Source: Escherichia coli O157:H7
GTDB lineage: Bacteria; Pseudomonadota; Gammaproteobacteria; Enterobacterales; Enterobacteriaceae
DNA length: 64,000 nucleotides
Assembly: GCF_013167455.1 (NCBI RefSeq)
Contig: NZ_CP038328.1
Reading direction: 5' to 3' (one strand)
Every line of letters begins with the position of its first letter. Position 1 is the first letter of the stretch. The translations under genes were made by a program, and so were the position numbers. The notes beneath the pieces are model-generated. The model saw only the letters and a program-made list of their open reading frames with translations. It was not told where the DNA came from and did no database searches. Below, piece after piece: positions 16,703 through 34,472 of the stretch.

Positions 16703-16735
16703 TACCCATAAAAAATGCCCCTCCGGAGAGGGGCA
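16703..16735 (-). terminator. intrinsic terminator downstream of TerB-like gene
   Basis: gcccctccggagaggggc stem with U-run on the minus strand. Confidence 0.5.
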
Positions 16736-17743: not shown

Positions 17744-17756
17744 ATGATGCTGATAA

Positions 17757-17833: not shown

Positions 17834-17842
17834 TATGTAATA

Positions 17843-17918: not shown

Positions 17919-17946
17919 GAGCCAAAAAATAATAATCAGATGAAAA

Positions 17947-18660: not shown

Positions 18661-18794
18661 TATAATTTTACTTTCATTAGCAATTGGTTAGCTCAATTAT
18701 AGCCCCAAAAGGTAAATTATCATCAACACATAAGCAAAGGACTGACAGGTGTCGCCCCCCCACCAGCCGCCCATTCACCACAAATAAAAAGCCT

Positions 18795-18992
18795 TCAGGA
18801 CTGAAGGCGTCTGTAACAACCGCACTGATAGTCTGCCAGACCCGCCATAACAAGCTGGGTCAGTATTAACTGGCAGCGTTCGCGTGAAAGGTAAGTATTC
18901 TGCGCAATCTCCCCGACTGTCGCCGGTTCGGTAACGCTTAATTCATCAAACACAACTCTGGCGGTTTCTGTCATATCCTGCTGTTTCAGCAT
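18795..18992 (-). CDS. small putative winged-helix DNA-binding protein
   Basis: 65-aa ORF upstream of the AraC gene; …TVGEIAQNTYLSRERCQLILTQLVMAGL… resembles small wHTH regulators. Confidence 0.35.
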   Translation of the reverse strand: MLKQQDMTETARVVFDELSVTEPATVGEIAQNTYLSRERCQLILTQLVMAGLADYQCGCYRRLQS

Positions 18993-19116
18993 GTCTTTTT
19001 ACCCTTTCCGGTTAACGTGACATACCAATAACTCTTGTCTAAAAAGCCAGCAAGATAAAAAGCCAGTATTCACGACCACCAGCGTGTTTACTGTACTGCA
19101 CCAGGTTTACAGGTAC

Positions 19117-19140
19117 AAAAAAACCGCTCAGCGGCGGGTT
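19117..19140 (-). terminator. stem-loop plus U-tract (candidate late-operon terminator/antitermination target)
   Basis: Plus strand aaaaaaaccgctcagcggcggg; on minus strand a GC stem followed by U7. Confidence 0.4.
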
Positions 19141-19264
19141 TAAGTTGTGTGGCGAAGTAACCACTCTTAACAGCATATTTGATTTTTTACGATTGTAAAC
19201 GGTTGATTATTCATCTCCAATAAAAATAATTGTGTGGGTATGCCCTTAACAATGGATAAGAAAC

Positions 19265-19711
19265 ATGAATAAAATGACTGTACTATTACTTAGCGCAACT
19301 ATCATTTCAGGTTGTACTTCTTCCGTACCATTGATAAAGAAAACTCAATCAGGAAAACCTGAGGGGGTTTATCAAAATACGACAAAAGATAAAGTCAAAG
19401 ATGCCCTTGTGAATTACTGCAATAGTAGAGGGTTGATAATTTACAACGCGGATAACAGCAGTGTTATATGTGGTAAAGAACTGGAAGGCGGCTCTGCTGT
19501 TTTTGGACAAATGTTAATCGGCAATGCCTATTCAACAACCCCGGTATCAAAAGTCAGATTTACTATCGCTCAAGTTAATAACGATACAAAAGTGTGGGCC
19601 GATATGTGGATGGAAACTCAAATGGCAATGGGGCAAGTACAACAAATGTCTATAACAGACAACGCAAGCAAAAACACTATCCAACAACGTCTTGATGAAT
19701 TAAAACCTTAA
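19265..19711 (+). CDS. AT-rich lipoprotein (moron)
   Basis: 148 aa; signal peptide with lipobox LLSATIISGC; opposite strand to all surrounding late genes; own hairpin terminator at 19726-19747. Confidence 0.6.
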   Translation: MNKMTVLLLSATIISGCTSSVPLIKKTQSGKPEGVYQNTTKDKVKDALVNYCNSRGLIIYNADNSSVICGKELEGGSAVFGQMLIGNAYSTTPVSKVRFTIAQVNNDTKVWADMWMETQMAMGQVQQMSITDNASKNTIQQRLDELKP

Positions 19712-19791
19712 ATAAATTAAATAAAATGGGGAGAATAAATCGACTCCCCACACATTAAACTGATTCAATTACCCCCTCAATAAGAGGTCTT

Positions 19792-20172
19792 CTAACGATC
19801 CATCTCTAGCTCAATTTCTAACATCATTAACATGCCATCAACTACACCTTCAGCCTTTTGCAATAAACGCCCAACCCAGCAATCAGAACGCCCATGTTTA
19901 CGGGCAAGCGCCATAAAAGTCATACCACCTACATAATAATCCACTAATAAATCGTGCAAATCGCTGTTGTTCTTTTTCAGGCGAGCCATGCATCCACAAA
20001 TGATCATCGCGTCATCGTCACAACATTGCGGGCGGGATTTTACTTTTGAAGGGATTAGTCCTTTAAACCCTGCAGCAATAGACGACCAGGTGACATCCTC
20101 GTGATTATTTGCCACCCATGCCCCCCAACGTTCAAGAACCATTTGAATATCACGCATCAACTTTCTCCACAA
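19792..20172 (-). CDS. Q: late antiterminator Q (933W-type)
   Basis: …[60 protein letters not shown]… matches Q of Stx-type phages from memory; alternative start at 20157. Confidence 0.8.
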
Positions 20173-20174
20173 AA

Positions 20175-21170
20175 TCAGGCCAGCACGCCAATTGCCAGCG
20201 CACGATCGATAAAACGAAATATCAGCTCCAGCTGGGAGCCATACTTCTCTTCAAATGCCACGGTATCCGCATGCAGCTCGTCGTGATGCTTTCTGCACAA
20301 AGGCAACACAAAAAGGTCATGCGCTTTTGTTCCCATTCCACCCTGACCGTGACCTATCAGGTGGTGGGGATCATCAGCGGGCTTTCCACAACATGCACAC
20401 GGCTGTGTCTTAACCCAGCGCGTGTACTTTTCATTAACCCAGCGGCGACGTTTTGGGCGTAACATAAAAGACTCCGGCGACTCCGGATCCACTTTCAGCG
20501 CCAGCACCTTTTTCGCCTTATCCTGGATGATGCTGGTGGCAGGAACCGAAGGCACAAGGTCACTTTCCCGGGTAACAGACGGCACAACAGGCTTCGGTAA
20601 TCTCAGTGCCTTACGGGCTGCACTTTCCGGTAAGGCATCCGCCAGATCATTACGAATCAGCCACCAGCACAGTTCCGGCATTGTCACAACGTGACTGTCA
20701 TCAAAACCGAGATCCCGACGCACAACAGACAACACCCAGCGGGCACAGTTATCCGTTGCCATTGATTCCAGCCGTTCCGTGAACTGATCGCGCAGCTGGT
20801 TATCGCAGTGCCAGCACAGACGGATTGCACCCGGAGCGTGTCGCATTGTGGTCATGTTCTCGCTGTGCCAGTCGGAATGAGGCCACTGGCAGCCTTTTTC
20901 ACGAAGTAACCAGCTTTCAAGACATTCCACGCCACCAGCACGACGGATCACTGCCTCATTGCGGAACACGGCCCGAACGGCAGGATCATCCGCCAGCGGT
21001 TGTGATGCCGCCGGAACGGCACCACTGGCGAAAGATGAATAACGCTCCGGCTCAGGCTCCAGCAGGACACGCCCCTGCATAAACAGGGGCATCAGCTCTG
21101 AACCTGGCCTGAACAATACGATCCCCATACGCGGGGCAATTTCAGGGGTCAGTAGTGCTCTCACGGTCAC
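20175..21170 (-). CDS. DUF968-family prophage protein with C-terminal HNH-like Cys/His motif
   Basis: 331 aa; C-terminus …[45 protein letters not shown]…; immediately upstream of Q. Confidence 0.55.
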
Positions 21171-21171
21171 C

Positions 21172-22389
21172 TCAATGAACGGTATCGAGCAGCTTTAACA
21201 GCTCAGGGAATCGGGATTCGAAGAAATGCGGCTGCGTCTCGCGCGGATTTGCGGGACTGGTGATGTTCTTGCCGAACATGCAGCCTTTCGCTGTCAGCGA
21301 CCAGAATTTTTTGATGTTGTTAATCGCGGTACGACTGTATCGTTCGCGCTGCTCGACGATCCCCAGTTTCACCATCTGGTGATATGCCTGATTAGCCGTC
21401 AGGCGTATACCATACTGTTTCAGCAGTGCACTCAGTGACAGTGTCGGGCGACTTGAGCCATCGTGTGCATCAGCAGGAGCATCAATGGCATAGCGCGGTG
21501 CCAGATTCGGTAAGCCAACAGCCTCCTGGAGTTTCTGACAGGCACCAAGCACAGATGAGTTAGACAGGTTTAACTCCCGACGCATAAAGTCCAGCAGAAT
21601 CACACCAGCCTGCATCTTGTCAGCAGCCTGTCCGGATAATTTTTCCGGTGCGCTGGTTACCATGTCGAAAGTACGGATCACCTTAAGATGGAATGACGGG
21701 CTTATCCACATTGCATAGGCATACACCAGTTCCTTGCAGACATACGTTCCCCGTTCATTTCCCCCATGAATCACACTCACCGGGTCAACACCCAAATTCT
21801 GGGTGTTGGTCAATTCATGAACAAGTTCAACAGTTTGTTGGCTGGAAAGAAACTTTCCTGGCTCCTTGGTTCTGGCATTTGCACCAGATGCTACTGCTGC
21901 GCGATGTAGATCGTTCAGGCTGTAACGCCCATAAACATCACGACGAACTTCAATACCATCAATGACCATCAGATTATTCATACTTCGTTTCTCCTCTTGA
22001 TCAGGCGGCTGCACCCGCCGTTTTCTCGTACTTACTGATAGTGATCTCGACCTTCCCTTTCGGGATAACCGGTCCCACTCCACCAGCATTCTTTTCACCT
22101 GACTGTCGTCTTCCCACACACCCGCGTGGGTCAGGGCGTCAAACAGCGCCTTGTTATAGTTGTCCAGATCGCGGATCCTGTTATCCGGAGGAAACAACAC
22201 GATCTCCACTGAAGCAGGTGCCGACGTTGGTTTCGGCAGACGACGTAACTGCTCAATGATGGCGGCACACGCCGCGCTCTGAAATTTTCGCCCCGCCTCG
22301 CTTATCAGGCTCTTACCAGCAAATGCCCCTTTGTTGGGGTGTCGCCAGTACGTGTTCACGCTGGGCGGGAAAGGCAGGATCAGCTTCAT
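21172..22389 (-). CDS. RusA-like Holliday-junction resolvase fused in frame to a KilA-N-domain protein
   Basis: N-terminus MKLILPFPPSVNTYWRH…RDLDNYNKALFDALTHAGVWEDDSQV (RusA); from MNNLMVIDGIEVRRDVYGRYSLNDLHRAAV (KilA-N) with its own AGGAGA RBS; no stop between the two. Confidence 0.6.
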   Translation of the reverse strand: MKLILPFPPSVNTYWRHPNKGAFAGKSLISEAGRKFQSAACAAIIEQLRRLPKPTSAPASVEIVLFPPDNRIRDLDNYNKALFDALTHAGVWEDDSQVKRMLVEWDRLSRKGRSRSLSVSTRKRRVQPPDQEEKRSMNNLMVIDGIEVRRDVYGRYSLNDLHRAAVASGANARTKEPGKFLSSQQTVELVHELTNTQNLGVDPVSVIHGGNERGTYVCKELVYAYAMWISPSFHLKVIRTFDMVTSAPEKLSGQAADKMQAGVILLDFMRRELNLSNSSVLGACQKLQEAVGLPNLAPRYAIDAPADAHDGSSRPTLSLSALLKQYGIRLTANQAYHQMVKLGIVEQRERYSRTAINNIKKFWSLTAKGCMFGKNITSPANPRETQPHFFESRFPELLKLLDTVH

Positions 22390-22712
22390 ACTTTCAGGCC
22401 CCTCTGATGTAACCAGTGGGTTGCACGCAGCCTGGCGTTTTCCTCACCGGCAAGCAGTGAGCGGATAATCCCGACCGCCTCGCTGTCGTCGTCCTTCACC
22501 GCGGTATGAAGCGTGATGCCCCGGGCCACGCCACGCTTTATCGTGATGACACCTTTTTTCTCCAGTGCGCGAAGATGCTCCACCGCTGCATTCACTGAAC
22601 GGTATCCCAGCATGATTGCCACCTCCTGATTGGTTGGCGGGAAGCCACGTTCTTTCTGATAAGAAATCAGCATATCCAGCACCTGCTGCTGGCATTGAGT
22701 TAACGTCGTCAT
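22386..22712 (-). CDS. LexA-like DNA-binding domain protein lacking the peptidase domain
   Basis: 108 aa; MTTLTQCQQQVLDMLISYQKERGFPPTNQEVAIMLGYRSVNAAVEHLRALEKKGVITIKRGVARGI parallels LexA residues 1-70. Confidence 0.65.
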   Translation of the reverse strand: MTTLTQCQQQVLDMLISYQKERGFPPTNQEVAIMLGYRSVNAAVEHLRALEKKGVITIKRGVARGITLHTAVKDDDSEAVGIIRSLLAGEENARLRATHWLHQRGLKV

Positions 22713-23362
22713 GCCGCCATCTCCCTGACCAGTTTTTCCGCCTGCTGGCGAACCTGCGCCAGAAACGCCTCACCACATGCCTCAAGTTCATCGCGCCCGA
22801 TGTAGCTGATTGCCGGTCCCTTCCAGGTCTTATCGAAAACAGCAATAGCACCAGCGAAGAAAGCGCCTGTCGGCACCTGCTTCTCATCCTTCGGGATAAA
22901 CCAGGCAGGCAGTTCAAAACCAATACGCCCGCGAATAAAAGCAATATGGTCCGCATCTTCCGGCCACCACACTTCGCTGGTGGCAGCTTTGATCAGGAAA
23001 ACATAGCGCCCACCCTTATCACGCATGGCACTGGCATGTTTCATGATGTAACGCATGCCGGTGATGTATTGCCCCTCATGCTGACTGGCGCGGCTGTATG
23101 GGGGATTACCAAAGGCAGCCCCTTTAAGCTCCGCAAGACGTTCTGACCAGTCATGCGCCAGCGCGTTGTCTTCCGCCGTGTAATACGCAGCACATTTGGC
23201 GTTATCACCGTCAGTGAACAGATCCAGAACAAACGGGCCAAACAGGGTGTTAATTCCCCAGAAAATGTTGTCCGGCGTGCGCCACTGATCACCCACTTCC
23301 TTCAGTTCATGGGCTGGTTTGTTCCGCAGTTCCACCAGCTCCTGGCAATATTTATTACTCAT
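22709..23362 (-). CDS. phage DNA N6-adenine methyltransferase
   Basis: …AAFGNPPYSRASQ… (NPPY motif); start MSNKYCQELVELRNK taken at 23362, sharing one base with the upstream stop (TAATG). Confidence 0.7.
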   Translation of the reverse strand: MSNKYCQELVELRNKPAHELKEVGDQWRTPDNIFWGINTLFGPFVLDLFTDGDNAKCAAYYTAEDNALAHDWSERLAELKGAAFGNPPYSRASQHEGQYITGMRYIMKHASAMRDKGGRYVFLIKAATSEVWWPEDADHIAFIRGRIGFELPAWFIPKDEKQVPTGAFFAGAIAVFDKTWKGPAISYIGRDELEACGEAFLAQVRQQAEKLVREMAA

Positions 23363-23856
23363 TAAGCCCCCACGTAATTCCCTGACAGATACCACTCATC
23401 ACCCGATACAGCGCGCTTGCTGCTTTTCCGTAAACACTGCTCACGACGCGCCAGAAAATTGTTTCGTTCTGGCTGGGAGTGGCTTTCACGGAATGCCGCC
23501 ATCCACACCGTTGCAGCACGACGGTATAAGCCCCTGGACTCCAGTTCTTCCGCCTGGCGGGTCAGGCACAAAATCACCCGGGGATCGTTAGTGCCGACAT
23601 AGAAATTGCGCACAGGTCTGGTTTCACGAACTGGTTGTGGTTCCGGCTCCTGCGCTCTCTCAGTCAGGCGTGGGAAATGTCTGCGTGTATCTCCTTCACA
23701 ACGGTGAGCCACACGCCCACTCTGACGTAACTTGCTTGCTGACTGCAGAACGCGCTGCCGTGAGTAACCTGCAAAAGCATCCGCAATGTCTCCGGAAGTA
23801 CACCCCGGATGGGCTTCAATGAATTTCTGAACTTCATTCAAAAGACTCATGATCAC
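23362..23856 (-). CDS. putative regulator with PerC/ANR-like C-terminal motif
   Basis: 164 aa; …AEELESRGLYRRAATVWMAAFRESHSQPERNNFLARREQCL… resembles PerC-family proteins (recalled, unverified). Confidence 0.3.
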   Translation of the reverse strand: MIMSLLNEVQKFIEAHPGCTSGDIADAFAGYSRQRVLQSASKLRQSGRVAHRCEGDTRRHFPRLTERAQEPEPQPVRETRPVRNFYVGTNDPRVILCLTRQAEELESRGLYRRAATVWMAAFRESHSQPERNNFLARREQCLRKSSKRAVSGDEWYLSGNYVGA

Positions 23857-24671
23857 CCCCTGAATCCTGCCGGGATCTGGCTGTAGTCCACGTTGTCGTA
23901 ACTGGCTTTGAAGTACGGGTCCTCGCGTCTGGCTGCAGATACCGCAGGAACTTCCCAGGATTCTTCGAAATGACGATCCGGACCAAAGAACGTGACAGCC
24001 TGTTTCACAAATTGTGTGCCGCTGTTACCCATCGCAGATACCCAGCCCGCGTAGCGTTTCACACCTTCCAGCATGGTTTCGGGGTTTACCCCCTCATTCA
24101 AACGGGCTTTCCAGGCTTTGAAGGCTGCAGATTTTGAATTGCCACCAGCACGTTTGGGATATGCCAGCCATGCCTGCTCAAACTCCGGAGAGTATTCCGG
24201 TCGGTTTGAACGAACTCGCACGGACTCATCAACTGATGCACCAACAGCTATTGGTTCATTGACTGGTTCTTTGACTGGTTCAAAAGAGTGACTGGTTCTG
24301 GGTGAATCTCCTGCACTACCCCCTGGTGCAACTCCTGCACTACCTGGTGAATTTGCTGCGCCAGATAGTGAATTATTTGCACTACCCCCTAGTGAATCTC
24401 CTGCACCATCCAGATGAAGGAGATAGATATTACTTGAGTTACCTTTTTCACCTTTCCGGGTGACTTTTTTTACCAGCCCGGACTCACAAAGGGCCGCAAT
24501 ATGATTCATCACAGAACGTTTGCTAATCTCGCACTGGTCAGCAATATGCTGGTAGCTGGGCCAGCACTCCCCCTGATCGCTGGCATTATCAGCCAGCTTG
24601 ATCAGAACCAGTTTTCGCAATGGATTACCCACTCGAATTTTCATCGCTTTAACCATCAGCTCCATACTCAT
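23853..24671 (-). CDS. replication initiator (O-like: N-terminal HTH, low-complexity linker, C-terminal domain)
   Basis: 272 aa; …KLVLIKLADNASDQGECWPSYQHIADQCEISKRSVMNHIAALCESGLV…; middle encodes G/S/A/N-rich linker coinciding with DNA direct repeats. Confidence 0.55.
   Translation of the reverse strand: MSMELMVKAMKIRVGNPLRKLVLIKLADNASDQGECWPSYQHIADQCEISKRSVMNHIAALCESGLVKKVTRKGEKGNSSNIYLLHLDGAGDSLGGSANNSLSGAANSPGSAGVAPGGSAGDSPRTSHSFEPVKEPVNEPIAVGASVDESVRVRSNRPEYSPEFEQAWLAYPKRAGGNSKSAAFKAWKARLNEGVNPETMLEGVKRYAGWVSAMGNSGTQFVKQAVTFFGPDRHFEESWEVPAVSAARREDPYFKASYDNVDYSQIPAGFRG
24240..24420. repeat. two sets of short direct repeats (candidate origin iterons) inside the O-like gene
   Basis: 3x TGACTGGTTC (24262-24299) followed by about 5 copies of a 21-24-bp unit GTGAATCTCCTGCACTACCCCCT-like (24302-24415). 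Confidence 0.6.
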
Positions 24672-24892
24672 GCTGCACCTCCGAGATGCTTCATGTTTTT
24701 TCCGGAGCGAAAGGCTATAAGCGGCATACTGACGCGGTAATTACGGCCCAGCGGTTCACAAATCACCTTCTGACATTCACGGTCAACCAGGCTAACACGT
24801 AGAACATGCCCTGCAGGTGTGGTGTACCACTGACCCGGACGAGGACAACGGAAAGTCTGATTGGTAAACCGTTTGAAAATATTCCGGATCAT
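24668..24892 (-). CDS. hypothetical small protein
   Basis: 74-aa ORF translationally coupled (4-nt overlaps) to both neighbours. Confidence 0.4.
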   Translation of the reverse strand: MIRNIFKRFTNQTFRCPRPGQWYTTPAGHVLRVSLVDRECQKVICEPLGRNYRVSMPLIAFRSGKNMKHLGGAA

Positions 24893-26049
24893 TTGCGCCC
24901 CCTTACCTCTGAAGGGTTCAGCGACAAATTTATGAGGCAGGCCAGCGCCGAAGCATCATTAATATAATCATATAAGCTAACAGCCAGCGGAGATTCAGCT
25001 TTTGCCAACATAGGATAAAGCTGCTGCAGCCAGACCTTGTGGATTACCGACAGGTGGGAGTAAAGCACGCTGGCGTTATCTGCGGCATCGCTCAGCGTGG
25101 ATGGCTTTGAAAGCAGTTTTTCCATCTGGTTAAAGGCATTGATGTATGCCTCTTTGAACCGGGCAGCACGTTTACCCGTGAAACCCATAGCAAGAAACGC
25201 AAAACCGTCTCGTGTGATTTGATAGCAAGGGAGCTTGCGTGTACCACCGTTCGGTTGATTTACCGAAATCGATGTCTCCGCAAAATTGCGGGCACAAAAC
25301 TCAGGGGAACAATCCAGAGTGCGGATCTTTTTCAGCACATCGTCGTGACGCTTGGAGAAGAAGTTGGCAACAGCCAAAGAAGTGGTAACGGCCTGGCCGT
25401 TGTCAATGGTGATTTCAGGTTGAGTGAGGGCTTGGATCGTAGCCATGATGGCAGCCTCCGTTGACAGTGAAAAACTTCCACCACCGGAAACGCCAATTTC
25501 ACTGGTGGTGAACTGGACGGGGTTGGCGTAACCGGCGTCAACGGAGACCGGCGCACCTTTCGGTGCCCCCGCCCAGCCCACCATAATCTGGATGTGAGCA
25601 AATGCGGACGATAAAAAAGACGCTGGCGCGTCATACATCGCCGTTGACAATTTCAGGACGCCAATCCCGGCACCCGCTTTATAAGGTGCCTGAACAGTGT
25701 AACGTCCCGGAATTGCAGAATCAATATGCTGGTGGTCCTTCACACTCAACAAAATCACGCCTGAATTTCCACAAAGGACTAAAGCACTCATGCGGGTAGT
25801 CTTTGCGAAGATAGATAACGCGCTGTGTTTCTGGCTCCCAACGAATAACATGAACATAAAGTCCTCTTCCGTCACGAAACCAGCGGTTAAGTTCCTGCAC
25901 AACTCGCCCCCCACAGTCAGGTAAAGTTCTCTGTGGTTACTTACAGCCAGGTGATTTGGTAATCTGCATTCATGCCGTAACAACAAGTGTTCAGCGACGC
26001 TGACCACCAGCTGTTGCGACAAACGGTTATTTGCCGTTAAACTGTTCAT
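24889..26049 (-). CDS. Rha-family phage regulatory protein with unusual N-terminal extension
   Basis: 386-aa ORF; region MATIQALTQPEITIDNGQAVTTSLAVANFFSKRHDDVLKKIRTL…TRDGFAFLAMGFTGKRAARFKEAYINAFNQME is Rha-like; the first ~190 aa are unrecognised and may reflect a later true start. Confidence 0.5.
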   Translation of the reverse strand: MNSLTANNRLSQQLVVSVAEHLLLRHECRLPNHLAVSNHRELYLTVGGELCRNLTAGFVTEEDFMFMLFVGSQKHSALSIFAKTTRMSALVLCGNSGVILLSVKDHQHIDSAIPGRYTVQAPYKAGAGIGVLKLSTAMYDAPASFLSSAFAHIQIMVGWAGAPKGAPVSVDAGYANPVQFTTSEIGVSGGGSFSLSTEAAIMATIQALTQPEITIDNGQAVTTSLAVANFFSKRHDDVLKKIRTLDCSPEFCARNFAETSISVNQPNGGTRKLPCYQITRDGFAFLAMGFTGKRAARFKEAYINAFNQMEKLLSKPSTLSDAADNASVLYSHLSVIHKVWLQQLYPMLAKAESPLAVSLYDYINDASALACLINLSLNPSEVRGRK

Positions 26050-26630
26050 GCGTTAGTTTCTCCACAACCAGAAGCAATCGACGCCACGACGCCCGGAGCT
26101 GCACACTCGCGGGCGTTACTCTTTTCCGGTGCACAAAAAACACGAAATAACAGTGTTAAATGCTCCTGCCACTTCGCCATTACTTGGTAGCTGTTCTCTT
26201 CGATTTGCTCACGCTCAGCCTGGTCAATAACTCCATCAGCAGTTGCCTTGCGTAAGTACTGGGAATGCTTGCCAATCCATTCTATTGACTCCATCAGCCG
26301 CTGATTAATGTCACCATTGTCAATGTCATCAATGACCACCAGCGGCACAAACACCCCATAACTACGACGGGCTATTGCATCTGTTACATGCCTGGTACCA
26401 CTGGCATCCTGTAAAACCATGGCCCACTCAAGTGGAAAAATTTGATCCCCACCGCTACGCAGTCTGTTATGCAATTGATCTTTTGCTGGGGTGATATCAT
26501 CAGATTTATACAAACCAAGAATTTCTGCTGCTTCCTCATAGCCATGAGGTAAATCAGCAATCGTTCTTCGTATTGCTGCCACCAGCCATGCTGGTTGTTT
26601 ATCAACTTTCCATTCAGGTTCTTTACCCAC
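26046..26630 (-). CDS. early-right operon protein (CII position; possibly YdaT-like)
   Basis: 194-aa ORF immediately downstream of cro; no firm motif. Confidence 0.35.
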   Translation of the reverse strand: MGKEPEWKVDKQPAWLVAAIRRTIADLPHGYEEAAEILGLYKSDDITPAKDQLHNRLRSGGDQIFPLEWAMVLQDASGTRHVTDAIARRSYGVFVPLVVIDDIDNGDINQRLMESIEWIGKHSQYLRKATADGVIDQAEREQIEENSYQVMAKWQEHLTLLFRVFCAPEKSNARECAAPGVVASIASGCGETNA

Positions 26631-26657
26631 GGTTAATTCCTCATTTCTGTGGTGTTT

Positions 26658-26855
26658 TTATGCCGCAGCACTGTTAGTCTTTTGATATAAAGACACGTCA
26701 ACTTTCAGTTTCCCGTTAGTAATTTTTTCTAACTGGTACGCTCGGCCTTCAGGAATAATCTCAGGCCACTCTGAAACAGACGGATGCTTAATACCTAGGG
26801 CTTCGGCGGTTTTACAAACTCCGCCGAAATAATTAATCACGTCGGATTTCCGCAT
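26658..26855 (-). CDS. cro: Cro-like repressor
   Basis: 65 aa, divergent from the cI-like gene across an operator-containing 95-bp region. Confidence 0.7.
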   Translation of the reverse strand: MRKSDVINYFGGVCKTAEALGIKHPSVSEWPEIIPEGRAYQLEKITNGKLKVDVSLYQKTNSAAA

Positions 26856-26950
26856 TTCTGTCTCCCGTTAAATTACGTTAAGCAGAAATGTAGGATATCC
26901 AACATACCAATGTCAAGAATCCTACATAGTCATGTGGTAGGATTGCCTAC
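26856..26950. promoter_or_regulatory. OR-like operator/promoter region between cro and cI
   Basis: Three near-palindromic sites built on ATGTAGGAT…ATCCTACAT half-sites (26888-26905, 26919-26942, 26936-26951). Confidence 0.6.
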
Positions 26951-27604
26951 ATGATGAACATGAGTGATCGTATTCGCCAAAGGCGAAAAGAACTGAACCT
27001 GACACAACAAGCACTGGCTGATTTGACTGGTGTGAACCGTGTCACGGTTACTGGATGGGAAAAGGACGACTACCAACCAAATGGAGCCAACCTTCAAGCC
27101 CTAGCCAACGCACTTAAATGCGATCCTCTGTGGCTTGTTAGCGGAAAAGGCTCGCCTGAACCAAAGATAAATCTAAAACCTGAAATATTCGCAGTTAAAA
27201 AAGTCCCCCTCATCTCGTGGGTTCAGGCGGGTTCATGGACAATGACGGAGCCTGGTGTCAGGAAAGAAGATGCTGAAGAGTGGGTTTATACTACCGCCCT
27301 TGTATCAGAAATGGCATTTGCACTACGGGTCCGTGGTGATTCAATGACCAATCCCCTCGGCTCACCATCGATACCAGAAGGTTCTATCGTTATCGTAGAG
27401 CCAGATATTATTGATACAGAGTGTATTAACGGAAAAATCGTTGTTGCCCATATCAATGGTGGGCAAGAAGCGACACTCAAAAAATTTGTTGAGGACTGGC
27501 CGAACAGGTATCTCGTCCCACTAAATCCTAACTATAAAACTATTGAATGCGGTGAGAACTGCAGAATAGTTGGTCTTGTCAAACAAGTAATAATGGATTT
27601 TTGA
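26951..27604 (+). CDS. cI: CI-type repressor (HTH_XRE plus S24 LexA-like peptidase domain)
   Basis: 217 aa; N-terminal HTH (IRQRRKELNLTQQALADLTGVNRVTVTGWE), Ala-Gly cleavage site (VQAGSW), catalytic Ser (VRGDSM) and Lys (ATLKKF). Confidence 0.85.
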   Translation: MMNMSDRIRQRRKELNLTQQALADLTGVNRVTVTGWEKDDYQPNGANLQALANALKCDPLWLVSGKGSPEPKINLKPEIFAVKKVPLISWVQAGSWTMTEPGVRKEDAEEWVYTTALVSEMAFALRVRGDSMTNPLGSPSIPEGSIVIVEPDIIDTECINGKIVVAHINGGQEATLKKFVEDWPNRYLVPLNPNYKTIECGENCRIVGLVKQVIMDF

Positions 27605-27659: not shown

Positions 27660-27720
27660 TCTTTTTATGTAGGATAACCAACATAAACTCTTGACACTCA
27701 CATGTTGGATATCCTACATT
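27660..27720 (+). promoter_or_regulatory. OL/pL-like operator-promoter
   Basis: Operator copies atgtaggataaccaacat and catgttggatatcctacat flanking TTGACA (27691-27696) with a -10-like tacatt 18 nt downstream. Confidence 0.5.
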
Positions 27721-28061
27721 TGTTTTTAGAGTTGTGGTGAATGCGCAGGCTGATGCGCGAAAGACATTGCAGCTATTGCGGAAAAGAGCTGTTCGGCGGG
27801 GCAATTAAACGCCCGTGAGAGTCTGAAATAACCGCAAGCCGGAGATCAGCACCGGTCACCACAACAGCCACTGCTTTGGCGGTACCAGTTTGTACACTTG
27901 CTTCCGGCTGGTACCGCTCTTTTTACAAAACAGAGAAGAGCATCACCGGACGACGGGCTCATAACCCAATCCATCCGGGCGGCTGCCACCGCAGGTGTTC
28001 TTCTCTGTTTTGTGGAGAAACCAACCGACCTTGCAGGGTCGATATGATGAGGAGCAACAAA

Positions 28062-28424
28062 ATGGCTAGCGAACGCAGTACTGATGTGCAGGCATTTATC
28101 GGGGAGCTGGACGGCGGCGTATTTGAAACAAAAATCGGCGCAGTTCTCAGTGAAGTCGCTTCCGGTGTGATGAACACGAAAACCAAAGGTAAGGTCTCGC
28201 TCAACCTGGAAATCGAACCGTTTGATGAGAACCGTGTGAAAATCAAACACAAACTCTCATATGTTCGCCCGACTAACCGCGGGAAAATTTCCGAAGAAGA
28301 CACCACCGAAACGCCGATGTATGTCAATCGCGGTGGTCGCCTGACTATTCTGCAGGAAGACCAGGGACAATTACTGACTCTTGCCGGTGAACCTGACGGA
28401 AAACTACGCGCAGCAGGTCATTAA
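28062..28424 (+). CDS. hypothetical early-left protein
   Basis: ATG 28062 preceded by AGGAG; 120 aa MASERSTDVQAFIGELDGGVFETKIGAVLSEVASGVMNTK…. Confidence 0.5.
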   Translation: MASERSTDVQAFIGELDGGVFETKIGAVLSEVASGVMNTKTKGKVSLNLEIEPFDENRVKIKHKLSYVRPTNRGKISEEDTTETPMYVNRGGRLTILQEDQGQLLTLAGEPDGKLRAAGH

Positions 28425-28489
28425 TATCGTTCTTAATTAACTGATTATTTATCTCATCACTGAATATCTTTATATAGTGAGGACTTATT

Positions 28490-29314
28490 ATGTCTCAGAA
28501 CTTAGACGCAACCGCAATTAATCAAATCCATGCCCTTATTTCTGCTCAGGGTGTTAATGAAATTATCAGTAAGATTGGTGCCGATGCTGTGGCATTGCCT
28601 GAGAATTTCCGCATTCATGATCTGGAAAAATTTAATTTAAATCGCTTCCGTTTCCGTGGTGCGCTTTCCACTGCCAGCATCGATGACTTTACCCGTTATT
28701 CTAAAGATCTTGCAGATGAAGGCACCCGCTGCTTTATCGATGCCGATAATATGCGTGCCGTCAGTGTGCTTAACCTGGGTACTATTGATGAACCAGGTCA
28801 CGCAGATAACACCGCCACTCTCAAGCTAAAAAAGACAGCACCGTTTTCTGCTCTGTTGTCTGTTAATGGCGAGCGTAACTCCCAGAAGTCACTGGCAGAA
28901 TGGATTGAAGACTGGGCCGACTACCTTGTGGGCTTTGATGCTAATGGTGACGCTATTCAGGCAACAAAAGCGGCTGCGGCTGTCCGTAAAATCACGATTG
29001 AAGCAAACCAGACCGCTGATTTTGAAGATAATGACTTCAGCGGCAAACGCTCCCTGATGGAGTCTGTCGAAGCGAAGACCAAAGATATTATGCCAGTGGC
29101 ATTTGAATTTAAATGCGTTCCGTTTGAAGGTCTGAAAGAACGTCCATTTAAATTACGCCTCAGCATTATCACTGGCGATCGTCCGGTACTGGTTCTGCGC
29201 ATTATTCAGCTGGAAGCAGTGCAGGAAGAAATGGCTAACGAATTTCGTGATCTGCTTGTTGAGAAATTCAAAGACAGCAAAGTAGAAACCTTTATTGGTA
29301 CTTTCACCGCCTGA
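28490..29314 (+). CDS. DUF2303-like prophage protein (YfdQ-like)
   Basis: 274 aa [21 protein letters not shown]…; size and N-terminus recall YfdQ of CPS-53. Confidence 0.45.
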
Positions 29315-29441
29315 TTTCATTACTGCAAATGCCCCTGCGGGGGCATTTATGGAAACGTAATTAACTCAATAATCGCCGGATGGTGAGGGCTTCCTTTTAC
29401 CAGAATTCAGCGCGGTGCAGCGCATATACGTGGAGAACAAA

Positions 29442-29978
29442 ATGTCATTTATTAAAACTTTTTCCGGGAAGCATTTTTATTATGACAGGATAAATAAAGA
29501 CGACATCGATATTAACGATATCGCGGTTTCCCTTTCAAATATCTGTCGCTTTGCCGGTCATCTTTCGCACTTCTACAGCGTCGCCCAACATGCGGTTCTT
29601 TGCAGCCAGCTGGTACCGCAGGAATTTGCTTTTGAAGCATTAATGCATGATGCAACAGAAGCGTATTGCCAGGACATCCCCGCTCCACTGAAACGCCTTC
29701 TTCCTGACTATAAACGGATGGAAGAAAAAATTGACGCCGTAATCCGTGAGAAATACGGGTTACCCCCAGTTATGAGTACGCCCGTGAAATATGCCGATCT
29801 TATCATGCTGGCAACCGAACGCCGCGATCTCGGGCTTGATGATGGCTCTTTCTGGCCTGTACTGGAAGGCATCCCGGCAACAGAGATGTTCAACGTGATT
29901 CCACTGGCACCTAGCCATGCCTACGAGATGTTTATGGAACGTTTTAACGAGTTATCGGAGTTACACAAATGCGCATGA
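29442..29978 (+). CDS. HD-domain phosphohydrolase (YfdR-like 5'-deoxynucleotidase)
   Basis: …SLSNICRFAGHLSHFYSVAQHAVLCS…LMHDATEAYCQDIPAPLK… His/Asp metal-binding motifs; ATG 29442 with GGAGA RBS. Confidence 0.65.
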   Translation: MSFIKTFSGKHFYYDRINKDDIDINDIAVSLSNICRFAGHLSHFYSVAQHAVLCSQLVPQEFAFEALMHDATEAYCQDIPAPLKRLLPDYKRMEEKIDAVIREKYGLPPVMSTPVKYADLIMLATERRDLGLDDGSFWPVLEGIPATEMFNVIPLAPSHAYEMFMERFNELSELHKCA

Positions 29979-30319
29979 ATGTTTTCGAAATGGAAGGGTT
30001 TCTTCGCGGGAAATGTGTACCGCGAGATCTGAAAGTGAATGAAACAAATGCTGAGTATCTGGTGCGTAAATTCGATGAAGTACGTGCTGAGGCTCGCAAC
30101 GAGGGTATTAACTATACCGCAAGCCGTCTTGCTGCTGCTTTCAATCACGGATTTATCAATAAGCCTTTGGCTGAAGTTTTCGACGTTACACGCATGATTC
30201 TGTCAGCAAAAGAAGAGTTAGCTAATGAATCGCATCCGATTGATGGCCTGTCCGGTGAATATGCAGAGAAATCCCTTGAAGAATGGGCGGAACGGCTTCG
30301 CAAAGGAGGCAGCCAGTGA
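29969..30319 (+). CDS. hypothetical protein
   Basis: 116-aa ORF overlapping neighbours at both ends (translational coupling). Confidence 0.45.
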   Translation: MRMNVFEMEGFLRGKCVPRDLKVNETNAEYLVRKFDEVRAEARNEGINYTASRLAAAFNHGFINKPLAEVFDVTRMILSAKEELANESHPIDGLSGEYAEKSLEEWAERLRKGGSQ

Positions 30320-30789
30320 CTGGACATGCAGCAATCCTCGACATGTGCTGTGGCAGTCGCATGTTCTGGTTCGATAAGAATGACGACCGGGCGATATTTA
30401 GCGATATCAGAAAGGAAGAGCACACATTGTGTGATGGACGACGCCTGATTATCAGTCCTGATCTGATAGCTGATTTTCGTGCACTACCATTTGCAGACGC
30501 ATCTTTTTCGATGGTTATATTCGACCCTCCGCATCTTGAGCGTGTTGGTGATAACGCCTGGATGGGAAAGAAATATGGACGGCTGAATAAAGATACCTGG
30601 CGTGATGATTTGCGGCAGGGATTTAAAGAAGCCTTTCGTGTGTTGCGTCCATCCGGCGTTCTGATTTTTAAATGGAATGAAACGCAAATACCTGTTCGCC
30701 AGATATTGGTACTGACCGACAGAAAACCTGTTATCGGTCAACGAACAGGAAAAAACGATAAAACCCACTGGATTATTTTTATGAAATAG
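30316..30789 (+). CDS. small putative SAM-dependent (DNA) methyltransferase
   Basis: …ILDMCCGSRMFWF… (motif I-like) and …VIFDPPHLERVG… (DPPH, cf. DPPY/DPPW); GTG 30316 after AAAGGAGG, or ATG 30343. Confidence 0.5.
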   Translation: MTGHAAILDMCCGSRMFWFDKNDDRAIFSDIRKEEHTLCDGRRLIISPDLIADFRALPFADASFSMVIFDPPHLERVGDNAWMGKKYGRLNKDTWRDDLRQGFKEAFRVLRPSGVLIFKWNETQIPVRQILVLTDRKPVIGQRTGKNDKTHWIIFMK

Positions 30790-30935
30790 GCATCCAGTGA
30801 GTAGGTTCGTAAGGTTACAGATACGTATATCTGAATAATTAAATTCAGTTCTGTAAATAAAATTTAATCCTTAACCGGAGGGATTCCTGCACCCTCAGAA
30901 CATCAGGAGACCGCCCGAAAGGGCGGTAATGAAAA

Positions 30936-31403
30936 ATGGCTGAATTAACCAAATGGCTACAAAACACGATTACCGGAATTGAAACGGTAGTAGACGATAA
31001 ATCGTTTGTATGTGATGAAATAGTATTCAAAATCGATGTGGTTAAAAACGTACTTACCGCATTTAAAGTCGCGCTGGTATCGCTGGAAGCCGAACCGGTG
31101 ACATGGCGATATCGCTACGTGAGAAAAGGCGTTACGAACTTTCAGGAGAAGCCGTGGGTTGGTGACTGGAAATATGTACCGACAAAAGAGGATTGCAACG
31201 ACAGGCCGAACTATGAAATTCAGGCGTTATTCACGGCCCAGCCTGTGCCACTGACACCCGAAGGATTGATTAAAGCGGTGCGCTTCTATGAACAGGTTAA
31301 GAGTGAAAATCCGCCAGTCGAAACCGGAGCATGGAAAGACGCTGTTGACTGGGTGCTCAAAGAGGCTTGTCAGGCTGTAAACATTGGCATCAAAGGAGAG
31401 TGA
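30936..31403 (+). CDS. hypothetical protein sharing an N-terminal module with CDS 31599..32333
   Basis: MAELTKWLQNTITGIETVVDDKSF… versus MNTLTKEWLQNTITSIESARDEIPF…. Confidence 0.5.
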   Translation: MAELTKWLQNTITGIETVVDDKSFVCDEIVFKIDVVKNVLTAFKVALVSLEAEPVTWRYRYVRKGVTNFQEKPWVGDWKYVPTKEDCNDRPNYEIQALFTAQPVPLTPEGLIKAVRFYEQVKSENPPVETGAWKDAVDWVLKEACQAVNIGIKGE

Positions 31404-31404
31404 G

Positions 31405-31596
31405 ATGAACGGACAAATATCAATTGTTCGACCGGGAGCATGTGACGATCGCGAGATACGAATGATTATTCGTCTGGCGATGGGGAAAACAATAACAGCT
31501 CTCATTACTCCTGAAAATCTCGCATTAGCATTAACAGGAAAGTCAGACTTGCCAGTAGAGCTAAAGCTGCGAAATGTTGAGATTAAGGTGAAATAG
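31405..31596 (+). CDS. hypothetical small protein
   Basis: ATG 31405 after GGAGAG; 63 aa. Confidence 0.35.
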   Translation: MNGQISIVRPGACDDREIRMIIRLAMGKTITALITPENLALALTGKSDLPVELKLRNVEIKVK

Positions 31597-31598
31597 TT

Positions 31599-32333
31599 AT
31601 GAATACTCTTACCAAAGAATGGTTACAGAACACGATTACCAGCATTGAGTCAGCACGGGATGAAATACCGTTCGGACTCGATGAAGATCAAAACAACATG
31701 CTTACCGCATTAAAAATTACACTGGCATCACTGGCAGCAGTATCGGATGAACGAGCAGCCTATGAATTATTTATGGAGAAGCGTTTCGGGGAATCTGTAG
31801 ATCGCCGTAGGGCAAAAAATGGCGATAGAGAATACATGGCATGGGATATGGCGCTTGGCTGGATTATCTGGTGTCACCGCGCCGCCATGCTTCAGGGTAG
31901 CCAACCTGTAAGCCAAACTTACAACTTGCCAGAATTAATCGAAGGCATGGAAGTTTCCATTGATATAAGCACTTGTGATGCTGATTTAGGTAATCGCTAT
32001 TTCGGCACCGTCACCGAAGCGTTAGAACTTGATACAGCCAAGAATGGTTACATCCTCTTGGTTCAGGACGCAGAGCCAAACTTCGATGTAAATGGCAACT
32101 CTCCGGGAACTCCGGATAGTTGGATAAGCTGTAGTGATCGAATGCCTGAAAAGGGCCAGAACGTGCTTATTTCAGTGAATTTCGATAGCTCTCTGGTTGA
32201 ACCGCTAATATGCTCCGCACGCTATACCGGAAGCACCTTTCGGCGCGGAGATGCAACGATTAAGCCGGGTAATGGTATTGAGCAAGCAACTCACTGGATG
32301 CCGCTACCGGAACCGCCGCAGGAGGTGAAGTGA
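31599..32333 (+). CDS. DUF551-like prophage protein
   Basis: C-terminus …ISCSDRMPEKGQNVLI…ATHWMPLPEPPQ typical of DUF551. Confidence 0.55.
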   Translation: MNTLTKEWLQNTITSIESARDEIPFGLDEDQNNMLTALKITLASLAAVSDERAAYELFMEKRFGESVDRRRAKNGDREYMAWDMALGWIIWCHRAAMLQGSQPVSQTYNLPELIEGMEVSIDISTCDADLGNRYFGTVTEALELDTAKNGYILLVQDAEPNFDVNGNSPGTPDSWISCSDRMPEKGQNVLISVNFDSSLVEPLICSARYTGSTFRRGDATIKPGNGIEQATHWMPLPEPPQEVK

Positions 32334-32905
32334 TGAACAACTTAATGATCGACCTTGAGACGATGGGGAAAAATAAGGATGCACCGATCGTTTCCATTGG
32401 CGCGGTGTTCTTCACTCCAGAAACCGGAGACATCGGACAAGAATTCTATGCGGTTGTCAGCCTAGACAGTGCTATGAAGCAAGGAGCTACACCTGACGGC
32501 GATACCATCCTGTGGTGGTTGAAACAAAGCCCTGAAGCGCGAGCTGCAATCTGTATTGATGATACTTTGTCGATCAGCGATGCTCTCTCAGAACTAAACC
32601 ATTTCATTAACCGGCACGCAGACAATACGAAATATTTAAAAGTCTGGGGTAACGGGGCCACCTTCGACAACGTAATTTTACGTGGAGCTTACGAGCGAGC
32701 AGGACAAATCTGCCCGTGGGCGTACTGGAATGACCACGATGTACGCACGATCGTTACGCTTGGGCGTTCCATCGGATTCGACCCCAAAATGGACATGCCT
32801 TTCGATGGCGAACGGCACAACGCCCTGGCTGATGCCCGTCATCAGGCAAAATATGTTTCCGCTATCTGGCAGAAATTAATTCCTGCCACCAGCACAGAAT
32901 TATGA
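32330..32905 (+). CDS. DEDDh-type 3'-5' exonuclease
   Basis: LMIDLETMGKNKDAPIVSIGAVFF (Exo I), …WGNGATFDNVIL… (Exo II), …HNALADARHQA… (Exo III). Confidence 0.65.
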   Translation: MMNNLMIDLETMGKNKDAPIVSIGAVFFTPETGDIGQEFYAVVSLDSAMKQGATPDGDTILWWLKQSPEARAAICIDDTLSISDALSELNHFINRHADNTKYLKVWGNGATFDNVILRGAYERAGQICPWAYWNDHDVRTIVTLGRSIGFDPKMDMPFDGERHNALADARHQAKYVSAIWQKLIPATSTEL

Positions 32906-32914
32906 TTTTCCCGG

Positions 32915-33223
32915 GTGCAGCCGGTTTTGATGGAGAAAATTATGAACACCTTGTTTTTACTGATGGCTGAATTCAATACCCCAAACATTGAACTCTCAGC
33001 AGTTAGCCAAAAGTACTTTGGTATGAGTCCAGCCACGGCAGAAGCAAAAGCAAACGCTTGTAAGTTGCCCGTTCCAACATATCGCATCGGCACATCACAA
33101 AAAGCAAAACGTTGCATCAATATTCAGGATCTTGCGGAATACATAGACAAAAGGCGAGAAGAAGGACGTATCGAGTGGGAACAGGTCAGAACAGTCAAAC
33201 AGAAGGGCAAAGAAAATCACTAA
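32915..33223 (+). CDS. small DNA-binding protein (PrtN/excisionase-like)
   Basis: Last plus-strand gene of the early-left operon; …KYFGMSPATAEAKANACKLPVPTYRIG… HTH-like; probable start at 32930 or 32942. Confidence 0.45.
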   Translation: MQPVLMEKIMNTLFLLMAEFNTPNIELSAVSQKYFGMSPATAEAKANACKLPVPTYRIGTSQKAKRCINIQDLAEYIDKRREEGRIEWEQVRTVKQKGKENH

Positions 33224-33231
33224 AGAAAAAA

Positions 33232-33258
33232 CCCGCCTGAAGGCGGGTTTTCAAAAAG
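33232..33258. terminator. bidirectional intrinsic terminator at the prophage/island junction
   Basis: aaaaaacccgcctgaaggcgggttttcaaaaa: GC stem flanked by A-run and T-run. Confidence 0.7.
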
Positions 33259-33483: not shown

Positions 33484-33903
33484 TTACTCATCATCAATAG
33501 ATGATACGCAATATTTATTTTTAAATTTAAGGTTCTTTGGCGTAACTTCATCAGAGATATCAAAACCGTCCAGAATTCTATTGAATGTAGCTTCTGGCAT
33601 ATCATCATGAACAGAAATCTCACCCGATCGCTGCTTTCTAACCATGTTATCCACTCGCCAAATTATAGCTTCAGCGTAAACAACATAACTTGGATGCTTG
33701 ATAAAGCGATGATCACCAGAATTCAAGACGCAAGACGGATCGTGGGGGACACCATCCTTGATACTAGAAATATTAACAACTAAAACACAATAACAATCGT
33801 TAACGGGGTAATAAACAGGATCATTACAAATCACATGAAGATGATTGCATGGTCCAGTTGGGGCAAGCACAGTTCCTTTCCTGTATGGCTGATAATCCGT
33901 CAT
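33484..33903 (-). CDS. hypothetical protein (candidate toxin/effector partner)
   Basis: 139 aa, Cys/His-rich (…CNHLHVICND…HDPSCVLNSGDHRFIKHPSY…); ATGA overlap with the upstream gene. Confidence 0.55.
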   Translation of the reverse strand: MTDYQPYRKGTVLAPTGPCNHLHVICNDPVYYPVNDCYCVLVVNISSIKDGVPHDPSCVLNSGDHRFIKHPSYVVYAEAIIWRVDNMVRKQRSGEISVHDDMPEATFNRILDGFDISDEVTPKNLKFKNKYCVSSIDDE

Positions 33904-34472
33904 GATAATTGCAAAGAAAATTCCTTAAGTTTCTGAGATTCTTCCATTTTGCCAATTATGCGATTAGCCTCATCCTCGCTTTTACCCTCACTGATCAGCA
34001 TTTCTTTCAGGTCTATAGGCTTACGAGAATTGCCAGGATCGTGCCACTCTGGACAAACGCTTTCTAAATGCGTCATATTTGCGAGATCAAATCGGTTCAT
34101 ATGCCCATACCGAGAATAGATTTCATCTAAAATCCGGATATCTGCACGACTCAATTCATCAAAGACCTCGTCTGCATCCATTTCCCTCGGATCTGAACGC
34201 AACGATACATTATGCCCGTTCGTCTCTATCAAGTTGTACCAGTAGTCACCAATGCCTTCAGCCTTACCGCGAATCAAGTTCAGCGTATTCGACATGACTG
34301 GTCCAAATTTCATAGAGTAAAGGCTATCTTCGCCGATCATCCTGCCATGCTTCAAAATCGACTGGCGGTTAGACAGATAGAGCAGCTTCATCAATTTCAG
34401 ATATGCCATGCGCCCACCTCTCTTAAGAAGTAGGTATGCAGCCATTTGAGCTACTTTTTCTTCGCAAAACAT
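33900..34472 (-). CDS. Panacea (DUF4065/SocA-like) antitoxin-domain protein
   Basis: 190 aa; N-terminus MFCEEKVAQMAAYLLLKRGGRMAYLKLMKLLYLSNRQSILKHG resembles the N-terminal signature of Panacea-domain proteins (recalled); AT-rich. Confidence 0.5.
   Translation of the reverse strand: MFCEEKVAQMAAYLLLKRGGRMAYLKLMKLLYLSNRQSILKHGRMIGEDSLYSMKFGPVMSNTLNLIRGKAEGIGDYWYNLIETNGHNVSLRSDPREMDADEVFDELSRADIRILDEIYSRYGHMNRFDLANMTHLESVCPEWHDPGNSRKPIDLKEMLISEGKSEDEANRIIGKMEESQKLKEFSLQLS

Follow-up and report, generated by a model that had tools for sequence, protein, structure and literature searches.

We analysed a 64,000-nucleotide stretch of contig NZ_CP038328.1 of Escherichia coli O157:H7 (assembly GCF_013167455.1), hereafter called the window. 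On the + strand of the window, positions 28062 to 33223 are occupied by ten co-oriented open reading frames (ORFs), as given by the ORF list of the window, which are located between a CI-type repressor gene and the end of a prophage, downstream of a candidate pL promoter. This region probably represents the early-left (pL) operon, under repressor control, of a lambda-like prophage whose insertion site is the 5' end of dusA. The operon would be of the known yfdP-yfdQ-yfdR type, which lacks a recombination (Rec) module and makes use of host RecBCD and RecA in combination with Chi sites instead. A lambda-like prophage without Red genes represents a common and already described lifestyle.

The prophage has a lambdoid organisation: divergent cI and cro, an early-left operon ending in xis, an O-like replication gene, Q, lysis genes and lambda-like head genes. 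In lambda, the exo, bet and gam genes are found at the same genomic position, flanked by the immunity region and xis, and are also transcribed from pL, but none of the ORFs in the region studied here has a sequence or fold relationship with them. The ten ORFs were screened against the PHROGs, NCBIfam and PADLOC libraries, and six of them also against Pfam. Between cI and the last gene, no match was obtained to the Exo, Bet, Erf, RecT, Gam or Abc2 families, and none of these libraries recognised an annealing protein, a Red-type exonuclease, a single-stranded DNA-binding protein (SSB) or a RecBCD inhibitor within the early-left operon. The canonical exo-bet-gam set is thus absent, as had been proposed in an earlier interpretation made from the DNA letters only (the sequence-only reading).

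We then analysed the distribution of Chi sites. The head genes lie on the minus strand of the window, and the active orientation of Chi therefore corresponds to CCACCAGC on the + strand. The prophage part of the window (positions 1-34666) contains 12 Chi sites in the active orientation versus 3 in the opposite one. The number expected in this part under a trinucleotide model is 2.09 (Poisson P = 2e-6), and Chi is its most frequent octamer. Eleven of the 12 active-orientation sites are located within positions 12001-27000, which correspond to the right arm of the standard lambda map; this cluster (CCACCAGC on the + strand) spans positions 13164-26586 (-) and covers the lysis, Q, nin and replication region. 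The corresponding numbers for the chromosomal part of the window are 4 and 3. For the free phage mEp460 they are 16 and 4, and Chi is again the top octamer.

These features are those of a published class of phages. No Rec module is present in 68 of 314 enterobacterial lambdoid phages, most of which have at least eight Chi sites in the active orientation (Zheng, Casjens, Smith et al. 2025, PMC12315714). Phage LLS, the type phage of this class, grows better with RecBCD, and its early-left operon contains yfdP, yfdQ and yfbR-like HD-phosphatase genes (PMC12315714). The no-Rec/high-Chi class had been described earlier by Bobay et al. 2013, as cited in PMC12315714. The class is delimited by at least eight Chi sites in the active orientation and at most six in the other, and the 12 and 3 sites of this prophage, counted for the part within the window, fall within these limits. 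The prophage resembles the functional type represented by LLS in that no octamer is more frequent than Chi, and in that the sites show a strong strand bias and are concentrated in the right arm. Judged from gene content and Chi sites, the phage appears to lack a recombination module of its own and to belong to the described lambdoid class that relies on host RecBCD and RecA, which would be recruited through the many co-oriented Chi sites. The count and orientation of Chi sites offer a simple sequence test for the Rec-less lifestyle, and the outcome for this prophage is positive.

The signals preceding the operon are in line with control by a repressor. A promoter scan identified a sigma-70-like candidate pL promoter at positions 27691-27720 on the + strand (TTGACA-18-TACATT), which mirrors an identical sigma-70-like site facing the cro side. 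A repeat search revealed three copies of a 19-bp palindrome, ATGTAGGATATCCAACAT, two of them at the pL side (27667-27685 and 27702-27720) and one at the mirror pR candidate (26888-26906), and these copies overlap both mirror-image promoter candidates. They are likely the operators of the immunity type of the prophage, and their arrangement is that expected for OL/pL and OR/pR. The CI-type repressor encoded at positions 26951-27604 (+), which contains a helix-turn-helix motif and an S24 peptidase domain (phrog_4 'transcriptional repressor', 5e-59), presumably controls both pL and pR.

The candidate pL promoter is separated from yfdP by an untranslated leader of 337 nucleotides (27725-28061, +). 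The leader folds at -132.6 kcal/mol (z = -5.3 with respect to shuffled controls) and contains a terminator-like hairpin, GCGGUACCAG...CUGGUACCGC, followed by UCUUUUU (at about 27878-27925), as well as a hairpin of roughly 25 bp. Its sequence is 97.5% identical in mEp460. The leader did not match any Rfam family and contains no N-like gene; it may be a regulated read-through element. At the other end, the terminator scan and reading of the sequence identified a GC-rich hairpin 3' of the last gene (33227-33252, not assigned to a strand). For the convergent cargo genes on the minus strand it constitutes a strong terminator, and for the operon on the + strand a weaker one.

Family matches and motifs corroborated the genes named in the sequence-only reading, i.e., those encoding a DUF2303 protein, an HD phosphohydrolase, a DPPH methyltransferase, two proteins sharing an N-terminal module, a DEDDh exonuclease and a PrtN-like protein, and with them its statement that the operon carries enzymes acting on nucleotides or DNA. 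The gene list was incomplete, however, because it left out yfdP, even though the start of this gene is the start coordinate of the region it described, a 116-aa YfdS-like ORF and a 63-aa ORF. In addition, the genes had been described as all being translationally coupled, which does not hold for three junctions: gaps of 65, 127 and 146 nucleotides separate yfdP from yfdQ, yfdQ from yfdR, and the methyltransferase gene from the next ORF, respectively. The genes at the remaining six junctions overlap or are at most 9 nucleotides apart. Finally, the set is not unusual: the same yfdPQR(S/T) module is present in the K-12 prophage CPS-53, in SfV and in mEp460. The module, its distribution and the Rec-less lifestyle have all been published, and the operon is an ordinary one. 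We propose that it may be viewed as three layers. The first would consist of the conserved yfdP-yfdQ-yfdR head followed by YfdS/YfdT-type mosaic proteins. The second would consist of exchangeable accessory genes encoding the small orphan methyltransferase, the N-terminal-module proteins with their variable C-terminal domains and the DexA-like exonuclease. The third would be an excisionase gene at the distal end, adjoining the attachment site.

The first gene, yfdP (28062-28424, +), encodes a 120-aa protein that is 99.2% identical to K-12 YfdP (phrog_204, 1e-49). The second, yfdQ (28490-29314, +), encodes a 274-aa DUF2303 protein (PF10065, 2e-92) that is 99.3% identical to K-12 YfdQ. In an unrelated metagenome contig, a gene of the YfdP family (PF27127) directly precedes that of a YfdQ homologue with 38% identity; the contigs encoding distant YfdQ homologues are 1-1.6 kb long. 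The AlphaFold2 model of YfdQ has a predicted local distance difference test (pLDDT) score of 92. It has no fold neighbour in the PDB, and its matches in the AlphaFold Database are DUF2303 relatives only; this lack of a PDB fold neighbour argues against YfdQ being a Red, Erf or RecT protein in disguise. By sequence, the only PDB match of YfdQ is entry 9o7m, 'YfdQ Protein', a distant homologue (phmmer E = 1e-44) consisting of 36 chains of one 274-aa sequence. A literature search did not find a paper on this entry, whose assembly state could be a clue to the function of YfdQ. No match was obtained when PDB sequences were searched with YfdP, the YfdS-like protein or the DUF551 protein.

The third gene, yfdR (29442-29978, +, with an alternative GTG start at 29415), encodes a 178-aa HD-domain 5'-deoxynucleotidase that is 96.6% identical to K-12 YfdR. 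It matches phrog_318, 'deoxyribonucleoside 5' monophosphate phosphatase' (1e-109), and the HD protein of PDB entry 2gz4 (2e-14), and its HD motif is formed by H69-D70. The score against the YfbR-type NCBIfam model NF003009 is 20 bits, which is below the equivalog cut-off of 122. By these matches, YfdR is assigned to the YfdR/T5 Dmp-like group of HD proteins (phrog_318) and not to the YfbR equivalogs. The next gene overlaps yfdR by 10 nucleotides and encodes a YfdS-like mosaic protein of 116 aa (29969-30319, +; phrog_614 and phrog_583). According to BLASTP against K-12, its N-terminal 42 residues are 88% identical to YfdS, and its C-terminal module is different and lacks DUF551.

The K-12 counterparts of these proteins have been studied experimentally. 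Multicopy yfdQ and yfdR in combination with yfdS or yfdT suppress over-initiation and inhibit initiation at oriC (Noguchi and Katayama 2016, PMC4776307). The binding of purified YfdR to DnaA depends on Phe46, and YfdR competes moderately with DiaA and DnaB and is also a weak 5'-nucleotide phosphohydrolase; a host-takeover role in the ancestral phage was suggested by the authors of that study (PMC4776307). Judging from these K-12 proteins, which are 97-99% identical, the head module would most likely target the host replication machinery on derepression. YfdR would bind domain I of DnaA in competition with DiaA and DnaB, YfdQ and YfdS or YfdT would also be required, and YfdR may dephosphorylate deoxynucleoside monophosphates as well. 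The best experimental evidence for the conserved core, which comes from its near-identical K-12 proteins, points to host replication and not to anti-restriction.

Several points weigh against the interpretation of the region as a Rec-less early-left operon whose head module acts on host replication. First, this prophage differs from LLS in that it is integrated, and host replichore bias at its locus favours the same Chi orientation, so that part of the enrichment could be due to the residence of the prophage in the chromosome. Second, the window does not include the left end of the prophage, and the Chi counts and gene content are those of an incomplete prophage. Third, three ORFs as well as YfdP and YfdQ are of no known function and may possess a hidden recombination or anti-defence activity. 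Fourth, the effect on DnaA was seen only upon multicopy overexpression, and the authors allow that it is possibly an artefact (PMC4776307). Finally, YfdS and YfdT are not intact in this operon but are represented by segments within other proteins, and it is therefore uncertain whether the full K-12 phenotype can be transferred to it.

The region of 5.3 kb is 99.7% identical to that of E. coli CD45. It is covered for at least 80% in 85 complete genomes, and partial matches are present in 4479 of 5426 complete E. coli genomes. The names given by RefSeq in the near-identical region are YfdP, YfdQ family protein, yfdR 5'-deoxynucleotidase, class I SAM-dependent methyltransferase, DUF551, 3'-5' exonuclease and PrtN family. 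The conservation of the individual genes was analysed in 50 viral contigs that contain an identical yfdQ and at least 4 kb of downstream sequence, the scan having returned only 100%-identical copies. Whereas yfdP and yfdR are present in 48 and 49 of these 50 contigs, respectively, the genes for the DUF551 protein, the PrtN-type protein and the exonuclease are found in 14, 13 and 12 of them, and that for the small methyltransferase in only one. The operon therefore combines a core that is conserved with cargo that varies. The genes yfdP and yfdQ and that for the small methyltransferase are among the most widespread phage genes in enterobacteria.

Comparison with known relatives gives the same picture. 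The yfdP-yfdQ-yfdR-yfdS-yfdT genes of CPS-53 (PMC4776307) have the same order and the same place after the immunity region, and their first three products have the identities given above. CPS-53, however, continues with YfdS (DUF551), YfdT and TorI, while the operon in the window has only a 42-aa YfdS segment and a 61-aa YfdT-like segment, each inside another protein, and additionally encodes a methyltransferase, an exonuclease of the DexA-like type and a PrtN-type excisionase. In phage mEp460, 75% of the region is covered with an identity of 96.4%; the shared part includes yfdP, yfdQ, yfdR, the 63-aa ORF and the genes for the DUF551 protein, the exonuclease and the PrtN-type excisionase, and the phage has the same Dam-like methyltransferase gene in the nin region. 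It differs in its immunity region and in lacking the small methyltransferase and the 155-aa protein, which are replaced by three different small genes and one for an Ead/Ea22-like protein. In the case of SfV (orf29-32), 39% of the region is covered, corresponding to the yfdP-yfdR part.

The small methyltransferase gene (30316-30789, +) encodes a class I S-adenosylmethionine (SAM)-dependent methyltransferase of 157 aa that matches phrog_954, 'DNA methyltransferase' (2e-86), and the PADLOC models MTase_II (3e-73) and oMTase (4e-50). It contains CCGS (motif I) at residue 11 and DPPH (motif IV) at residue 70, as is typical of exocyclic-amine (N6-adenine/N4-cytosine) DNA methyltransferases, whose motif IV has the form D/N/S-P-P-Y/F/H. 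The residues of DPPH, D70, P71, P72 and H73, do not vary among homologues from five phyla. A target-recognition domain is not recognisable, and the size of the protein leaves no room for a separate one. Pfam gave no significant match, neither to DNA-methyltransferase models such as N6_N4_Mtase and MethyltransfD12 nor to others, only insignificant ones to the generic Methyltransf_11/25 families, and sequence and profile searches of the PDB gave weak generic SAM-methyltransferase matches only. The AlphaFold2 model, based on an alignment of 47 close homologues, has a pLDDT of 54, which is too poor for a fold search. Homologues with 45-65% identity are present in phages of Streptococcus (T12), Listeria (A118 ORF50), Gordonia, Acinetobacter, Porphyromonas and Vibrio, and one with 35% identity in the haloarchaeal virus HSTV-1. 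They are always located in the early replication-recombination region of the phages. A literature search for phage methyltransferases with a 'DPPH motif' returned nothing relevant. Many enterobacterial copies have an extra C-terminal extension of about 90 aa, resulting in a 248-aa form.

Given the lack of a target-recognition domain, the conservation across phages and the constant position in the early region, the 157-aa enzyme might be a minimal DNA methyltransferase with little or no sequence specificity, or have a universal non-DNA target, and would then not be an ordinary sequence-specific anti-restriction enzyme; we regard this assignment as quite doubtful. The second methyltransferase is a Dam-like phage N6-adenine methyltransferase encoded in the nin region (22709-23362, -). 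It scores 255.6 bits against TIGR01712 (cut-off 97.05) and matches phrog_111, and the name given by RefSeq in a 98.7% identical region supports this. Neither gene has an endonuclease neighbour, which agrees with the earlier view that the prophage carries two orphan methyltransferases, including a Dam-like one in the nin-like region. Both enzymes, together with the exonuclease described below, would act on DNA during lytic growth.

The lack of adjacent endonucleases, and the matches of the small enzyme to PADLOC models of orphan and Type II methyltransferases, would fit an anti-restriction or anti-defence island, in which the two methyltransferases shield phage DNA from restriction and one or more of the unknown ORFs inhibit other defences. 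Prophages that are otherwise identical also differ in their accessory genes, a variability often seen in counter-defence cargo. However, no known anti-defence protein was matched in the libraries searched, which are not dedicated to anti-defence, and the substrate of the small methyltransferase, with no target-recognition domain to be recognised, is not assignable from the searches. Moreover, E. coli itself methylates GATC, and the contribution of a Dam-like enzyme would be limited in this host. With the conserved genes being tied experimentally to DnaA and not to restriction (PMC4776307), we consider such an island unlikely.

The exonuclease gene (32333-32905, +) encodes a 190-aa DEDDh 3'-5' exonuclease of the DexA/Rv2179c-like family (PF16473, 1.4e-75; phrog_255), and one Chi site (CCACCAGC, at 32886) is located within it. 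The DEDDh residues are D7, E9, D112, H162 and D167. The protein matches T4 DexA (PDB 8kel/8ken, E = 4e-11), with W132 aligned to W152 of DexA, which at 227 aa is a larger protein. An E. coli homologue of DexA, EcD ('HREX'), degrades DNA containing 5-hydroxymethylcytosine (5hmC) and protects against T4, and the family has been linked to scavenging of host DNA and to a role in defence, not in anti-defence (PMC12153337, 2025). The defence variant represented by EcD is defined by loss of the equivalents of DexA S87 and D90; the tetramer-forming Asp D90 corresponds to Ala78 in EcD (PMC12153337). We inferred the EcD family by means of the published primers, of which the forward one matched exactly and the reverse one with one extra base; this family has Ala at position 78, in agreement with the description of EcD. 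The exonuclease in the window is 37% identical to this inferred family of 189-aa proteins (E = 6e-38).

These homologies to DexA and EcD, and the protection against T4 reported for the latter (PMC12153337), raise the possibility that the exonuclease protects the lysogen by destroying the 5hmC DNA of superinfecting T-even phages. However, its Ser80 and Asp83 align to DexA S87 and D90, so that it has kept the two residues lost in EcD. In addition, the gene is located in a repressed early-left operon and is probably silent in the lysogen, and the only PADLOC match is a weak one to a Cas-associated DEDDh model (3.9e-5). An EcD-like role is therefore very unlikely.

Near-identical yfd genes persist in the cryptic prophage of K-12 and in most genomes of E. 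coli, and deletion phenotypes of yfdQ and yfdS are cited in PMC4776307. These observations could mean that the genes have been domesticated and are kept for the tolerance they provide to stress (peroxide, acid, alkylation), as proposed for cryptic CPS-53. We attach little probability to this, given that the reported deletion phenotypes are weak and that the module in the window belongs to a prophage with head, lysis, replication, immunity and excision genes and is also present in plaque-forming mEp460 and SfV. Its presence in such a prophage, and in those plaque-forming phages, argues instead for a working phage module. It is hardly credible, finally, that YfdP and YfdQ, together with the exonuclease, correspond to a single-strand annealing protein, SSB or Gam that has escaped recognition: they are a conserved pair at the position of lambda Red, YfdQ has conserved charged residues, the 36-chain entry 9o7m suggests a large oligomer like those of annealing proteins, and a 3'-5' exonuclease is encoded in the same operon, but phages equipped with a complete Rec module (ArgO145) contain the cluster too and some Rec-less phages lack it (PMC12315714), and the Chi enrichment argues for recombination outsourced to RecBCD.

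The remaining ORFs of the operon include two proteins that share an N-terminal module. The first is a 155-aa protein (30936-31403, +; phrog_660). The second is a mosaic protein of 244 aa (31599-32333, +; phrog_60 and phrog_660), composed of the shared module, a YfdT-like middle part (72% identity over 61 aa in BLASTP against K-12 YfdT) and a C-terminal DUF551 domain (residues 174-241; Pfam 2.7e-21). They have about 50 N-terminal residues in common, with 49% identity over 53 aa (E = 3e-9). Between them lies the 63-aa ORF (31405-31596, +; phrog_1222, 6.5e-41), which is annotated in RefSeq and in mEp460. In the near-identical region of CD45, RefSeq places the start of the 155-aa gene 102 nucleotides later (equivalent to position 31038); the presence of the shared N-terminal module supports the longer start. 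The DUF551 gene is flagged as two pseudogene fragments in the RefSeq annotation of CD45, and the window contains an intact 244-aa ORF.

The architecture of these two proteins resembles that of lambda Ea22 and its variants in Shiga toxin (Stx) phages (PMC10834534), in which a shared N-terminal segment is combined with unrelated C-terminal domains, one of them being DUF551. The position is also alike, as the lambda Ea22 gene lies between the recombination region and xis. However, neither protein matched the Pfam family Ead_Ea22, the 155-aa protein having no Pfam family at all, and the likeness is therefore architectural only. A literature search for DUF551 in work on anti-defence returned nothing relevant.

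The last gene of the operon (32942-33223, +, with an alternative GTG start at 32915) encodes a PrtN-family protein (PF11112, 5e-23; phrog_1300 'excisionase', 8e-40). It is the last gene before the dusA junction, and its mEp460 counterpart, gp25, is annotated as excisionase. Although it had been described as a PrtN-like regulator, its match to phrog_1300 and its place beside the dusA attachment site indicate that it is most likely a putative excisionase or recombination directionality factor. The prophage is inserted in the 5' end of dusA (junction from about 34666 onward), and the displaced 5' fragment of dusA is 105 bp long. In the near-identical prophage of CD45, the integrase gene is located at the opposite end, beside intact dusA, and the PrtN-type gene beside the displaced dusA fragment, which implies that integration separates int from xis. 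In the free phage mEp460, the integrase gene follows the PrtN-type gene with two small ORFs in between.

An overlapping gene pair on the minus strand (33484-33903 and 33900-34472), encoding proteins of 139 and 190 aa, is present between the excisionase gene and the attachment site, and other genes take its place in CD45 and mEp460. By eye, the pair resembles a toxin-antitoxin system, the N-terminus of the 190-aa protein being like that of Panacea/DUF4065 antitoxins. Its matches in PHROGs are to families of unknown function only, and PADLOC and NCBIfam returned none.

Elsewhere in the prophage, the replication module (23853-24671, -) appears to consist of a single gene, the N-terminal half of which matches O-like initiator families and the C-terminal half DnaD-like helicase-loader families; a separate P-like gene is not present beside it. 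The idea that yfdPQR replaces a missing helicase loader was considered and rejected, given this DnaD-like C-terminal part of the O-like protein and the fact that YfdQ and the HD phosphatase are also found in Stx phage records. Stx phages encode both O and P. The product of a 405-aa ORF (21172-22389, -) is a RusA-like resolvase (residues 1-113) joined to a KilA-N-type regulator (residues 137-403), and these two parts are encoded by separate genes in CD45 and mEp460.

The segment at positions 17667-19711 contains three tRNA genes (Arg, Arg and a Met/Ile-type with CAT), followed by a low-GC insert. The insert encodes an AraC-family regulator (17947-18660, -), which is YdeO/GadX-like below the family cut-offs, and a lipoprotein-like protein of 148 aa (19265-19711, +); relatives have a DNA methylase at the place of the insert. 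Finally, four Rfam families were matched above their gathering scores. C4 antisense RNA and isrK (25501-25588 and 25613-25689, both -) are located in or next to a Rha-type antirepressor gene, and AgvB (anti-GcvB; 16641-16702, +) and STnc100 (16704-16897, -) are located near the late region.

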